64,000 bases of DNA from GCF_058153355.1 NZ_CM177019.1; one strand, 5' to 3'. Shown: positions 52,738-57,411, numbered from the stretch's first letter. Numbers and translations: made by a program. The notes: a model not told the origin generated them from the letters alone.

Positions 52738-55700
52738 ATGAACAGGACCAGTCCCCATTATTGTCGTCGCTCAGTACTTTCCTTATTGATATCTGCTTTG
52801 ATATATGCCCCACCAGGGATGGCAGCTTTTACTTCAACCGTTATTGGCGTGGTAAACGATGAGACTGTAGATGGCGTCCAAAGAGTGGATGAACGAGGTA
52901 CAACAAATAACACTCATATTATCAACCACGGTTATCAGGATGTTTATGGCGGGGTATCTAATGGAAGTATTATTGAATCTGGTGGCCGTCAATATGTATC
53001 AGCCAATGGTACTCATCAGGGGCAGGCCAATAATACAGTCATTAACGGTGGCAGCCAGACAATTCTGGACGGGGGAATTTCCACAGGGACGATAATCCAG
53101 AGTGGCAGTCAGTATGTTTATGCAGGTGGTACCAGTAATGCAACAACGATAATAAGCGGTCGTTCAACAGTAATGGGGGGAACTGCGAATGGAACAATAA
53201 TTAATGGTGGGAGCCAGTCAGTATCGAGTCAGGGGCGTGTTGACGGTACGACGATAAATATGTCCGGGTATCAGGAGATTACGCAAGGAAGTCTGGCAAC
53301 GAACACAACAATAGATGGGGGGTGGCAGTATGTGGACTCAAGCAGTGTAGAAAATACTACCATTAAGAATGGAGGCGAGCAAAGAACAGTTAAGAGCCAT
53401 GCGCTGAACACCACAATAGATGGTGGTCTACAGGTTGTCGATTCAAGTACCGCAGAAATAACCACCATTAAGAGTGGAGGAACGCAACAATTAAATAACA
53501 GCCAGGCTATGTTCACCACGATTGAAGGCGGAACTCAGTCTCTGAATAATAAGTCAACGGCAAAATATACTCAGATCTATTCTGGAGGTACTCAAATTGT
53601 TGATTACACCAGCACCTCGGATGTTATTGAAATTTATTCCGGTGGCGTGCTTGATGTTAGTGGTGGTACGGCAACAAATGTTACCCAGCACGATGGTGCA
53701 ATTTTAAAAACAAACACTAACGGTACGACGGTGAGCGGTACGAATAGTGAAGGGGCATTCTCTATTCACAATAACGTGGCAGACAATGTGTTGCTGGAAA
53801 ACGGTGGTCATTTAGACGTATATGGTTCGGCAAATAAGACGATTATTAAAGATAAAGGAACAATGTCAGTTTTAACGAATGCTAAAGCTGATGCGACCCG
53901 AATAGATAATGGCGGCGTTATGGATGTTGCCGGAAACGCGACCAATACCATAATTAATGGTGGCACACAGAATATAAATAATCATGGTATTGCCACGGGA
54001 ACCAATATCAACAGCGGAACACAAAATATCAAGAGCGGCGGGAAAGCTGACACGACAAATATCTCCTCCGGGAGCCGGCAGGTTGTTGAGAAAGATGGTA
54101 CGGCAACTGGCAGCAATATTAGCGCCGGAGGCTCGCTGATTGTCTATACCGGTGGTATCGCACATGGGGTTAACCAGGAGACGGGCAGTGCTTTAGTTGC
54201 CAACACGGGCGCAGGGACTGATATTGAAGGATACAACAAGCTCTCTCACTTCACTATTACCGGAGGGGAGGCTAATTATGTTGTGCTGGAAAATACCGGC
54301 GAACTGACGGTAGTGGCTAAAACCACGGCGAAAAATACTACCGTTGATGCTGGCGGTAAGCTGATTGTCCAGAAGGAGGCTAAAACAGATACCACCAGAC
54401 TTAATAATGGTGGCGTTCTGGAGGTTCAGGACGGTGGTGAGGCTAAGCATGTTGAGCAACAATCCGGCGGCGCATTAATTGCTTCCACGACTTCCGGAAC
54501 ACTTATCGAAGGAACCAACAGTTTTGGTGATGCTTTCTACATCAGGAATTCAGAAGCTAAAAATGTAGTGCTGGAAAACGCTGGCTCATTAACAGTCGTT
54601 ACTGGTTCCCGGGCAGTTGATACGATTATTAATGCCAACGGCAAAATGGATGTTTATGGAAAAGATGTTGGCACTGTACTCAATAGTGCGGGCACCCAAA
54701 CAATATATGCCAGTGCCACTTCTGATAAAGCAAATATCAAAGGTGGCAAGCAAACGGTATATGGTTTAGCCACTGAGGCAAATATCGAAAGTGGTGAACA
54801 AATTGTTGATGGTGGGTCAACAGATAAAACGCACATCAAAGGCGGCACGCAAACCGTTCAGAATTATGGTAAGGCGATCAATACCGATATCGTCTCTGGC
54901 CTACAACAAATTATGGCAAACGGGACAACGGAAGGTTCCATTATTAATGGCGGTTCACAGGTAGTTAATGAGGGCGGTCTGGCTGAAAACTCGGTACTTA
55001 ATGACGGCGGCACACTCGATGTGCGGGAGAAAGGCAGCGCTACGGGGATACAGCAGAGTAGCCAGGGCGCGCTGGTGGCAACCACCAGGGCGACGCGGGT
55101 CACAGGGACACGCGCTGATGGCGTCGCGTTCAGCATCGAGCAGGATGCGGCGAACAATATCCTGCTGGCAAATGGCGGCGTGTTAACCGTGGAGTCAGAC
55201 ACCACTTCCGCCAAAACACAGGTCAATGCGGGCGGACGGGAGATCGTCAAAACAAAAGCCACTGCGACTGGCACGATGCTTACCGGCGGTGAACAAATCG
55301 TCGAGGGTGTGGCGAATGAGACAATGATTAACGACGGCGGAATACAAACAGTTTCGGCTAACGGTGAGGCAGTAAAAACAACGATTAATGAAGGCGGTAC
55401 GCTGACAGTCAACGATAATGGCAAAGCGACAGATATCATCCAGAACAGCGGTGCCGCTCTCCAGACGAGCACGGCTAACGGTATTGAAATCAGCGGTACT
55501 CACCAGTACGGCACCTTTTCCATTGCCGGAAATTTAGCGACCAATGTGCTGCTGGAAAATGGCGGTAATTTATTGGTATTAGCAGGTACCGAAGCTCGCG
55601 ATTCCACGGTTGGCAACGGTGGGGCAATGCAAAACCTGGGGCAGGACTTCGCCACCACGGTTAATTCCGGTGGGCAATATACCCTTGGTCGGTCAAAAGA

Positions 55701-57411
55701 TGAGTTTCAGGCTCTGGCCCGGGCAGAAGATCTACAGGTCGCTGGCGGGACGGCAATCGTCTACGCAGGTACGCTGGCGGATGCATCGGTCAGTGGCGCG
55801 ACAGGAAGCCTGTCGTTAATGACGCCACGGGATAATGTTACGCCAGTTAAACTTGAAGGGGTGGTCCGGATTACCGATAGCGCGACATTAACTATCGGAA
55901 ATGGCGTCGATACGACGCTTGCCGACCTGACGGCTGCCAGCCGGGGCAGTGTCTGGCTTAACAGCAATAATTCCTGTGCAGGCACCAGCAACTGCGAATA
56001 TAGAGTAAACAGTTTGCTCCTCAACGACGGTGATGTTTATTTATCAGCACAAACAGCAGCGCCTGCCACAACTAACGGTATCTACAATACGCTGACCACC
56101 AGTGAACTTTCCGGCAGCGGTAATTTCTACCTGCATACCAACGTTGCAGGCTCCCGGGGCGATCAACTGGTCGTCAACAACAACGCCACTGGCAATTTTA
56201 AAATCTTTGTTCAGGATACCGGCGTCAGCCCTCAGTCTGACGACGCGATGACGCTGGTGAAAACAGGGGGAGGGGATGCTTCGTTTACGCTGGGTAATAC
56301 CGGCGGTTTCGTTGATCTTGGGACCTATGAGTATGTCCTGAAAAGCGACGGCAACAGCAACTGGAACCTGACCAATGATGTCAAACCCAACCCGGACCCC
56401 AACCCAAATCCGAAACCGGATCCAAAACCAGACCCAAAACCGGCTCCGAAACCAGACCCGACTCCCGATCCAACGCCGACACCCGTCCCGGAGAAACGCA
56501 TCACGCCTTCTACGGCAGCCGTACTCAATATGGCAGCAACATTACCGTTGGTCTTTGATGCTGAGCTAAACAGTATTCGCGAGCGGTTGAACATAATGAA
56601 AGCGAGTCCACACAACAATAATGTCTGGGGGACGACGTATAACACCCGTAATAATGTCACCACCGATGCGGGTGCCGGGTTTGAGCAGACGCTGACCGGA
56701 ATGACGGTGGGGATCGATAGCCGTAATGGTATTCCTGAGGGGATTGCGACGCTGGGCGCTTTTATGGGTTATTCCCATTCACATATCGGTTTTGATCGTG
56801 GAGGACATGGCAGTGTGGGCAGTTATTCTCTGGGGGGCTATGTCAGCTGGGAACATGAAAGTGGTTTCTATCTGGACGGTATCGTGAAGCTGAACCGCTT
56901 TGAAAGTAACGTAGCCGGTAAAATGAGCAGCGGTGGAGCCGCCAGCGGCAGTTATCGCAGCAACGGGCTGGGCGGTCACATTGAAACCGGGATGCGATTT
57001 ACCGATGGTAACTGGAACCTGACGCCGTATGCATCGTTAACGGGGTTCACCGCTGACAACCCCGAATATCATTTATCCAATGGTATGGAATCGAAATCAG
57101 TCGATACCCGCAGTATATATCGTGAACTGGGCGCAACGCTGAGTTACAACATGCGTCTGGGGAACGGCATGGAAGTTGAGCCGTGGCTGAAGGCGGCTGT
57201 GCGCAAAGAATTTGTCGATGATAACCGGGTGAAAGTGAATAATGACGGTAATTTTGTCAATGATTTGTCGGGCAGACGTGGAATATACCAGGCAGGTATT
57301 AAAGCCTCATTCAGCAGTTCGTTAAGCGGGCATCTCGGGGTGGGGTATAGCCATGGTGCCGGTGTGGAATCCCCGTGGAACGCGGTGGCTGGTGTGAACT
57401 GGTCGTTCTGA
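52738..57411 (+). CDS. ypjA: Large AIDA-I-type autotransporter adhesin-like protein
   Basis: ORF 52609..57411; start chosen at MNRTSPHYCRRSVLSLLISALIYAPPGMA signal; repetitive beta-helix passenger, Pro-rich linker, C-terminal barrel ending in aromatic residue. Confidence 0.85.
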   Translation: MNRTSPHYCRRSVLSLLISALIYAPPGMAAFTSTVIGVVNDETVDGVQRVDERGTTNNTHIINHGYQDVYGGVSNGSIIESGGRQYVSANGTHQGQANNTVINGGSQTILDGGISTGTIIQSGSQYVYAGGTSNATTIISGRSTVMGGTANGTIINGGSQSVSSQGRVDGTTINMSGYQEITQGSLATNTTIDGGWQYVDSSSVENTTIKNGGEQRTVKSHALNTTIDGGLQVVDSSTAEITTIKSGGTQQLNNSQAMFTTIEGGTQSLNNKSTAKYTQIYSGGTQIVDYTSTSDVIEIYSGGVLDVSGGTATNVTQHDGAILKTNTNGTTVSGTNSEGAFSIHNNVADNVLLENGGHLDVYGSANKTIIKDKGTMSVLTNAKADATRIDNGGVMDVAGNATNTIINGGTQNINNHGIATGTNINSGTQNIKSGGKADTTNISSGSRQVVEKDGTATGSNISAGGSLIVYTGGIAHGVNQETGSALVANTGAGTDIEGYNKLSHFTITGGEANYVVLENTGELTVVAKTTAKNTTVDAGGKLIVQKEAKTDTTRLNNGGVLEVQDGGEAKHVEQQSGGALIASTTSGTLIEGTNSFGDAFYIRNSEAKNVVLENAGSLTVVTGSRAVDTIINANGKMDVYGKDVGTVLNSAGTQTIYASATSDKANIKGGKQTVYGLATEANIESGEQIVDGGSTDKTHIKGGTQTVQNYGKAINTDIVSGLQQIMANGTTEGSIINGGSQVVNEGGLAENSVLNDGGTLDVREKGSATGIQQSSQGALVATTRATRVTGTRADGVAFSIEQDAANNILLANGGVLTVESDTTSAKTQVNAGGREIVKTKATATGTMLTGGEQIVEGVANETMINDGGIQTVSANGEAVKTTINEGGTLTVNDNGKATDIIQNSGAALQTSTANGIEISGTHQYGTFSIAGNLATNVLLENGGNLLVLAGTEARDSTVGNGGAMQNLGQDFATTVNSGGQYTLGRSKDEFQALARAEDLQVAGGTAIVYAGTLADASVSGATGSLSLMTPRDNVTPVKLEGVVRITDSATLTIGNGVDTTLADLTAASRGSVWLNSNNSCAGTSNCEYRVNSLLLNDGDVYLSAQTAAPATTNGIYNTLTTSELSGSGNFYLHTNVAGSRGDQLVVNNNATGNFKIFVQDTGVSPQSDDAMTLVKTGGGDASFTLGNTGGFVDLGTYEYVLKSDGNSNWNLTNDVKPNPDPNPNPKPDPKPDPKPAPKPDPTPDPTPTPVPEKRITPSTAAVLNMAATLPLVFDAELNSIRERLNIMKASPHNNNVWGTTYNTRNNVTTDAGAGFEQTLTGMTVGIDSRNGIPEGIATLGAFMGYSHSHIGFDRGGHGSVGSYSLGGYVSWEHESGFYLDGIVKLNRFESNVAGKMSSGGAASGSYRSNGLGGHIETGMRFTDGNWNLTPYASLTGFTADNPEYHLSNGMESKSVDTRSIYRELGATLSYNMRLGNGMEVEPWLKAAVRKEFVDDNRVKVNNDGNFVNDLSGRRGIYQAGIKASFSSSLSGHLGVGYSHGAGVESPWNAVAGVNWSF

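Follow-up and report, generated by a model that had tools for sequence, protein, structure and literature searches.

The 64,000-nucleotide stretch of DNA analysed here (GCF_058153355.1 NZ_CM177019.1, one strand, 5' to 3'; hereafter the window) carries, at 52738-57411 on the plus strand, a gene that is Escherichia coli ypjA (ehaD), very probably encoding a classical type Va autotransporter adhesin. It lies in the gene order ileY, ypjCB, pin remnant, ypjA, cbtA/cbeA, which is the same in K-12, strain 222 and R32_14_1F. The open frame extends from a GTG at 52609 to 57411, and translation from the ATG at 52738 gives 1557 residues and no internal stop. This ATG is the start annotated in the closest homologue, ypjA of R32_14_1F, and the upstream alternative GTG is used by none of the annotated homologues. 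An initial annotation, made from the sequence alone, had described an intact autotransporter of about 1,500 residues and had left the gene unnamed; intactness is borne out, the actual length is 1557 residues, and the name was supplied by a megablast search of 5426 complete E. coli genomes, in which most matches are annotated as 'adhesin-like autotransporter YpjA/EhaD'. The best DNA match, R32_14_1F, shows 98.6% identity across all 5.3 kb, most strains being about 93% identical; in an alignment of 1522 residues, the protein shares 92.7% identity with K-12 YpjA. Full-length identity to K-12 YpjA and the conserved locus place the protein in the YpjA/EhaD orthologue group, and an exact-sequence look-up in a collection of 15 billion proteins returned no identical protein. 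Gene identity, intactness and all architectural elements are direct observations of the present analysis, and the elements are as follows.

52738..57411, plus strand: ypjA/ehaD coding sequence of 1557 codons and a stop codon, without interruption; ATG at 52738, stop at 57409-57411.
52724..52729, plus strand: Shine-Dalgarno-like AGAGGA, 8 nt 5' of the ATG (direct reading).
52738..52824, plus strand: Sec signal peptide of 29 residues, MNRTSPHYCRRSVLSLLISALIYAPPGMA (direct reading).
52825..56004, plus strand: passenger, a beta-helix with about 41 detectable rungs of 18-19 residues (Pfam, NCBIfam, autocorrelation, AlphaFold, Foldseek).
52960..53727, plus strand: hypervariable distal tip of the passenger, residues 75-330, with the strongest divergence at residues 75-225.
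53301..53405 and 53406..53510, plus strand: two tandem 105-nt units of 35 residues and two rungs each, 70% identical in DNA (repeat family D2).
56005..56373, plus strand: pertactin-like junction/autochaperone region, residues 1090-1212 (Pfam PF03212, E 5e-45).
56386..56490, plus strand: Pro-rich linker PNPDPNPNPKPDPKPDPKPAPKPDPTPDPTPTPVP, residues 1217-1251, encoded by 12/24-nt tandem DNA repeats.
56506..56598, plus strand: predicted alpha-helical segment, residues 1257-1287 (AlphaFold helices at 221-230 and 232-251 of the modelled fragment).
56617..57408, plus strand: 12-strand outer-membrane beta-barrel, residues 1294-1557, ending W-S-F (PF03797, E 2e-45; TIGR01414, E 5e-97).

The protein has every structural feature that defines a type Va autotransporter. 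Specifically, direct reading and comparison with K-12 YpjA, from which the window's protein differs here by one residue, identify an N-terminal Sec signal peptide with a basic n-region (R3/R10/R11), a 13-residue hydrophobic core (SVLSLLISALIYA) and PPGMA before AF. This signal peptide had initially been described as extended; it is of ordinary length, Pfam detects no ESPR domain (PF13018; a feature of AIDA-I and Ag43) in the window's YpjA, and the published figure for K-12 YpjA is likewise 29 residues (SignalP 6.0), against 52 for Ag43 (PMC13101318). Many YpjA paralogues found in the homologous-protein search do carry PF13018; this search scored the 8000 candidates sharing most words, and the proteins listed were mainly partial or paralogous.

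The passenger, of about 1060 residues, consists of imperfect repeats whose proposed consensus, GG.Q.V..G.A..T.IN.GG, is real: with at least 6 of the 11 fixed positions agreeing, it occurs 26 times in the passenger, compared with 0.5 times in shuffled sequences. The period given for these repeats, 19-20 residues, was slightly too long, the BLOSUM autocorrelation peaking at lag 18 (z 10.4) and then at lag 19 (z 7.7), with a super-period of 35-36 within the first 300 residues. A repeat hidden Markov model built from YpjA itself recovers about 41 units over residues 46-1014, and the imperfect repeats of about 19 residues that mark AIDA-I-type or self-associating autotransporters (SAATs) are matched 9 times by Pfam AIDA (PF16168; 449 bits) and 13 times by the NCBIfam strand-loop-strand repeat TIGR04415 (228 bits, E 5e-69). 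Interspersed among them are modules of about 60 residues that end in N-V-x-L-E-N-G-G, four by protein motif search and five by DNA repeat family D3. An AlphaFold model of residues 30-1100 (mean predicted local distance difference test score, pLDDT, 92.7) shows short strands throughout and one low-confidence loop of 14 residues. In Foldseek, this model retrieves the Ag43 and TibA passengers first (E 1e-22 to 1e-12) and then other right-handed beta-helices, while a PDB sequence search matches Ag43, TibA, Vag8, BrkA, pertactin and IgA1 protease. Once mature, the protein has just two cysteines, at residues 1080 and 1086 (55975-55995), which flank AGTSN just before the pertactin-like junction and could form a small disulfide loop.

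Downstream of the helix, the pertactin-like junction that accompanies beta-helical passengers of this type matches pertactin 1dab and IgA1 protease 3h09, both by sequence and by fold. The Pro-rich linker string was reported exactly by the initial annotation, as was the C-terminal end VAGVNWSF; residues 1217-1249 of the linker have pLDDT below 50 and are predicted to be disordered. The helical segment directly before the barrel, a prediction from the AlphaFold model, lies within the TIGR01414 coverage and aligns to BrkA 3qq2. The barrel itself is recognized by the Pfam Autotransporter beta-domain PF03797 at residues 1296-1535 (156 bits, cut-off 26) and by TIGR01414 (325.6 bits, cut-off 16), so that both autotransporter signatures exceed their cut-offs. 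In the model of residues 1037-1557 (pLDDT 82), a beta-region is followed by the disordered Pro-rich segment, the helix and 12 long strands, and Foldseek places this model closest to the BrkA beta-domain (template modelling score 0.92), then to EspP, Hbp, AIDA-I 4mee and NalP. The C-terminus V-N-W-S-F provides the beta-signal, its terminal phenylalanine (F521 of the modelled fragment) being invariant in 42 homologues. The AIDA-I-type architecture that had been proposed is supported by the family models, by sequence similarity to solved structures and by two AlphaFold models of high confidence.

The closest known systems are the same gene in other strains. YpjA of K-12 (b2647) and EhaD of O157:H7 share locus, domain order and 95-99% protein identity over residues 331-1557 with the window's protein. 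The K-12 protein differs in length (1526 residues) and in its tip, residues 75-225 being 65% identical with a synonymous divergence (dS) of 0.47. Closer still are the ypjA of R32_14_1F (WP_422112460.1) and that of strain N96, with 1557 residues, 98.2% protein and 98.6% DNA identity, a locus collinear with the window over 46000-62039 and membership of the same rare lineage (recA-alaS 99.3-99.4% identical); they differ from the window's protein by 28 amino acids, mostly at residues 30-74 and 259-330. Beyond ypjA itself, Antigen 43 (Flu/Cah) has the same beta-helix of rungs of about 19 residues, pertactin-like junction and 12-strand barrel, and its structures 4kh3, 7ko9 and 7koh are the best PDB matches of the YpjA passenger in both sequence and fold. 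Identity to Ag43 is, however, only about 31-36%, the passenger of YpjA has roughly double the length, and the 52-residue signal peptide of Ag43 is extended, unlike the 29 residues of YpjA; Ag43 is self-associating, whereas YpjA has been called a possible SAAT (PMC9289746). The equivalog models for Ag43 (NF033177) and AIDA-I (NF033176) score 352 and 281, respectively, below the cut-off of 1200 that applies to each, and these scores indicate that YpjA is a relative, not an orthologue, of AIDA-I and Ag43.

Variation in ypjA is concentrated in the outermost part of the helix. Over residues 75-225, protein identity is 65-71% to K-12 and strain 222, dS is 0.47-0.48, compared with 0.07-0.125 over residues 331-1090, and the ratio of nonsynonymous to synonymous divergence (dN/dS) in the tip is 0.43-0.53. 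Elsewhere, over residues 331-1090 and the barrel (residues 1290-1557), dN/dS is 0.15-0.18 against K-12 and 0.16-0.25 against strain 222; these low ratios indicate purifying selection over most of the gene, and those against K-12 imply that it is ongoing. Because synonymous divergence is high, the tip more probably represents an old allelic lineage or an import by recombination than the outcome of positive selection alone. The GC content inside the gene (52738-57411) rises from 42-47% in the first third to 51-56% in the last half, a gradient that matches the split between diverged tip and conserved body.

The tip allele is also longer than the common one. Relative to K-12 (1526 residues) and strain 222 (1524 residues), the window's protein has 35 extra residues at 224-258 and two fewer at position 361; the 35-residue alignment gap corresponds to one of the two tandem 105-nt units, which is missing from both of those alleles. 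The PDPK linker has two residues fewer than in K-12. Across the four alleles compared, lengths range from 1524 to 1557 residues, and the indels between them sit in repeats (the 35-residue two-rung unit, two residues in the PDPK linker and two at position 361). The initial annotation had suggested that recombination between repeats within the gene could generate length variants; the positions of these indels agree with this, but at the DNA level the repeats of the passenger share no more than about 70-87% identity over 23-105 nt, Tandem Repeats Finder reports tandem arrays in the linker only (56385-56473) and none in the passenger, where the repeats are too diverged as DNA, and the range of lengths is small. 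Repeat-mediated length change therefore exists, modestly.

The tip (nt 52830-53750) is matched at 90% identity or more in about 42 of the 3055 ypjA-bearing complete E. coli genomes, and common alleles align to this region in two pieces that span 105 nt less. Just 18 genomes match the flanking recA-alaS region at 99% identity or more; N96 and R32_14_1F are two of these and both carry the same tip allele, which thus belongs to a rarely sampled lineage. Within 11783-16185 and 41300-46500, recA-recX-alaS reaches at least 99% identity in just those 18 of the 5426 complete genomes, and none of them matches the gabDT-lhgO-glaH block at more than 97.7% identity. The window as a whole comes from an E. 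coli lineage that has seldom been sampled. It is tempting to regard residues 75-330, diverged and one two-rung unit longer, as a recombining specificity cassette with a binding or self-association partner other than that of the K-12/O157 form. We consider this speculative and decidedly unlikely; if it were true, adhesion or kin-recognition types would be set by the ypjA allele, a role already demonstrated for the Ag43 classes.

What the protein does has been studied in orthologues. Adhesion and biofilm phenotypes of YpjA were reported by Roux et al. 2005, as cited in PMC3796261, in O157:H7 YpjA/EhaD reportedly increases biofilm formation (PMC12547504), and a 2022 review places YpjA with the self-associating autotransporters of phylogenetic Group 4 (PMC9289746). 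Adhesion and biofilm formation upon forced expression of the window's gene would be expected by analogy with this orthologue literature. The promoter-replacement, adhesion and biofilm tests that had been proposed for the gene are accordingly not new, having been published for the K-12 and O157 orthologues. Putting a constitutive promoter in place of the native one was reportedly the approach of Roux and colleagues in 2005.

From the established autotransporter pathway, the following mechanism can be envisioned. The 29-residue signal peptide would take YpjA through Sec, after which the beta-barrel assembly machinery would insert the 12-strand barrel in the outer membrane with the alpha-helix (residues 1257-1287) in its pore. 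The passenger would then be threaded out and fold from the pertactin-like junction outward into a long right-handed beta-helix, which at about 18.5 residues per rung would comprise about 57 rungs and be roughly 25-30 nm long. A flexible spacer, the Pro-rich linker, would keep this helix away from the barrel and the membrane, and the exposed helix, its variable distal tip especially, would mediate adhesion and biofilm formation when ypjA is expressed.

Several observations weigh against reading the gene as a functional adhesin in this strain. A simple promoter scan of the 700 nt upstream of ypjA found no sigma-70-like match on the plus strand. The gene is dispensable, since 2423 of the 5426 complete E. 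coli genomes hold at least 80% of the query, some copies are truncated and, in most strains, a sister copy at the ymgJ-minE locus has been deleted. The same 2022 review gives the biofilm mechanism of YpjA as unknown and its structure as unpublished (PMC9289746). Secretion, surface exposure and function of the window's allele, its tip included, are presumed by analogy.

The main rival to a functional adhesin is, in keeping with these points, an intact but silent and dispensable island gene that is drifting toward loss, untranscribed and making no contribution in the strain. It draws on the missing plus-strand promoter match and on the AT-rich upstream DNA (31-44% GC), on decay among the neighbours (the pin fragment, a disrupted amylase gene and an inserted IS66 element), on the absence or truncation of ypjA in about half of the complete genomes of E. 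coli and on the reduction of the paralogous copy between ymgJ and minE to a leader and the last 355 nt. Yet 1557 codons are still open, and dN/dS of 0.15-0.18 against K-12 over residues 331-1090 and the barrel argues against advanced decay. Furthermore, a genomic SELEX (systematic evolution of ligands by exponential enrichment) study records a peak of RpoS-holoenzyme binding upstream of ypjA in K-12 (PMC5493296), which makes conditional expression plausible. On balance, we regard the silent gene as unlikely, although it survives better than the other alternatives.

Far less probable is a glycoadhesin of the AIDA-I/TibA kind, the repeats of which would need O-heptosylation by a dedicated Aah/TibC-type heptosyltransferase in order to function. 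AIDA-I and TibA have repeats of the same type as YpjA (PF16168, TIGR04415) and a transport unit of the same fold (4mee). In favour of the glycoadhesin, the 13 TIGR04415 matches are to a model named 'O_hepto_targRPT', and the passenger resembles the hyper-glycosylated TibA 4q1q. The transferase gene of the aah-aidA and tibC-tibA systems is found directly upstream. Around the window's ypjA, by contrast, none of the nine neighbouring open reading frames (ORFs) tested matches a glycosyltransferase family (they encode DUF5507/DUF5508, a resolvase fragment, CbtA/CbeA, DUF987, RadC and DUF932 instead), homologous loci have the same flanking genes, and the AIDA-I model NF033176 scores far below its cut-off. 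A further difference from AIDA-I and TibA is that YpjA has no ESPR match. A passenger with enzymatic or toxic activity (protease, lipase or cytotoxin), as known in some autotransporters such as the SPATE-type EspP and the esterase EstA, both among the barrel matches, is scarcely credible, for the whole passenger is repeat beta-helix with no catalytic domain in Pfam or NCBIfam, the model has no globular insertion beyond its single low-confidence loop, and the closest structural neighbours are the adhesins Ag43 and TibA.

The discovery value of the locus is small, ypjA/ehaD being a gene already known and annotated as an adhesin, and unusual here only in the rare allele of its outermost tip. It is included in the adhesin typing scheme adhesiomeR (PMC11184843) and has served as a surface-display scaffold and as a chromosomal integration site (PMC13101318, PMC10832536). 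Of modest value are the documentation of an uninterrupted copy from an E. coli lineage that is rarely sampled, the concentration of allelic variation in the outermost beta-helix rungs and confident structure models for a protein that had no published structure according to the 2022 review (PMC9289746). The one mildly novel aspect is the rare, deeply diverged tip allele that is longer by one unit.

A gutted second ypjA-like copy lies between ymgI and minE in most E. coli (5336 of 5426 genomes gave a match; for example, positions 4959-5661 of locus L005). In this remnant, which has lost nearly all of the ypjA ORF, the ypjA leader (window 52358-52708, 89% identical) abuts the final 355 nt of the gene (57067-57421, 96% identical). 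The stretch homologous to the leader contains ymgJ, a small annotated gene, and the remnant is annotated as a frameshifted partial barrel protein. The megablast matches of 13% coverage are this deleted remnant beside ymgJ. Their assignment to ycgV was rejected, as K-12 ycgV gives no DNA match and 25% protein identity over the C-terminal part only. Among GTDB representative genomes, an exact 24-mer from a stretch conserved in the four alleles had no match, and a protein-pattern scan found only two short contigs (L006 and L007) of the Collinsella sp. metagenome-assembled genome Map_57_008, which encode ypjA fragments 70-76% identical and are probably mis-binned Escherichia DNA, that is, E. coli contamination.

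The immediate flanks are as initially annotated, a Pin remnant upstream and a toxin-antitoxin pair downstream:

52151..52321, plus strand: fragment of a serine recombinase (Pin/pinH-like) with an in-frame stop (Pfam Resolvase, E 1.5e-9, profile positions 43-100 of 145).
57729..58401, minus strand: type IV toxin-antitoxin pair, with a CbtA-family toxin at about 57729-58049 and a CbeA/YeeU-family antitoxin at 58081-58401 (PF06755, E 1e-50; PF06154, E 2e-53; annotation of the collinear locus).

Homologous loci annotate the recombinase fragment as a partial recombinase or a pinH pseudogene. Genes for DUF987, RadC and DUF932 follow beyond CbtA/CbeA on the strand opposite to ypjA. Farther upstream, tRNA-Ile(CAU) ileY at 49522-49597 is the sole Rfam match near ypjA, and the ypjCB region (50243-51802, plus strand; 32-36% GC) holds a single ORF of 519 residues with DUF5507 and DUF5508, which in K-12 is split into ypjC and ypjB. 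The ygaQ-like gene of the alpha-amylase family (46709-48962, minus strand) is divided into three ORFs, compared with an intact 750 residues in R32_14_1F; tblastn switches frame near residue 558, the ORF breaks near 48114-48158, and the gene is probably a pseudogene, as in K-12. At the far end, collinearity with R32_14_1F stops at 62039, where a YfjI-like DUF3987 gene is cut to 264 residues (region 61355-63641) and is followed by an IS66-family transposase of 523 residues on the minus strand (62070-63641), an arrangement that looks like the insertion of an insertion sequence into the island.

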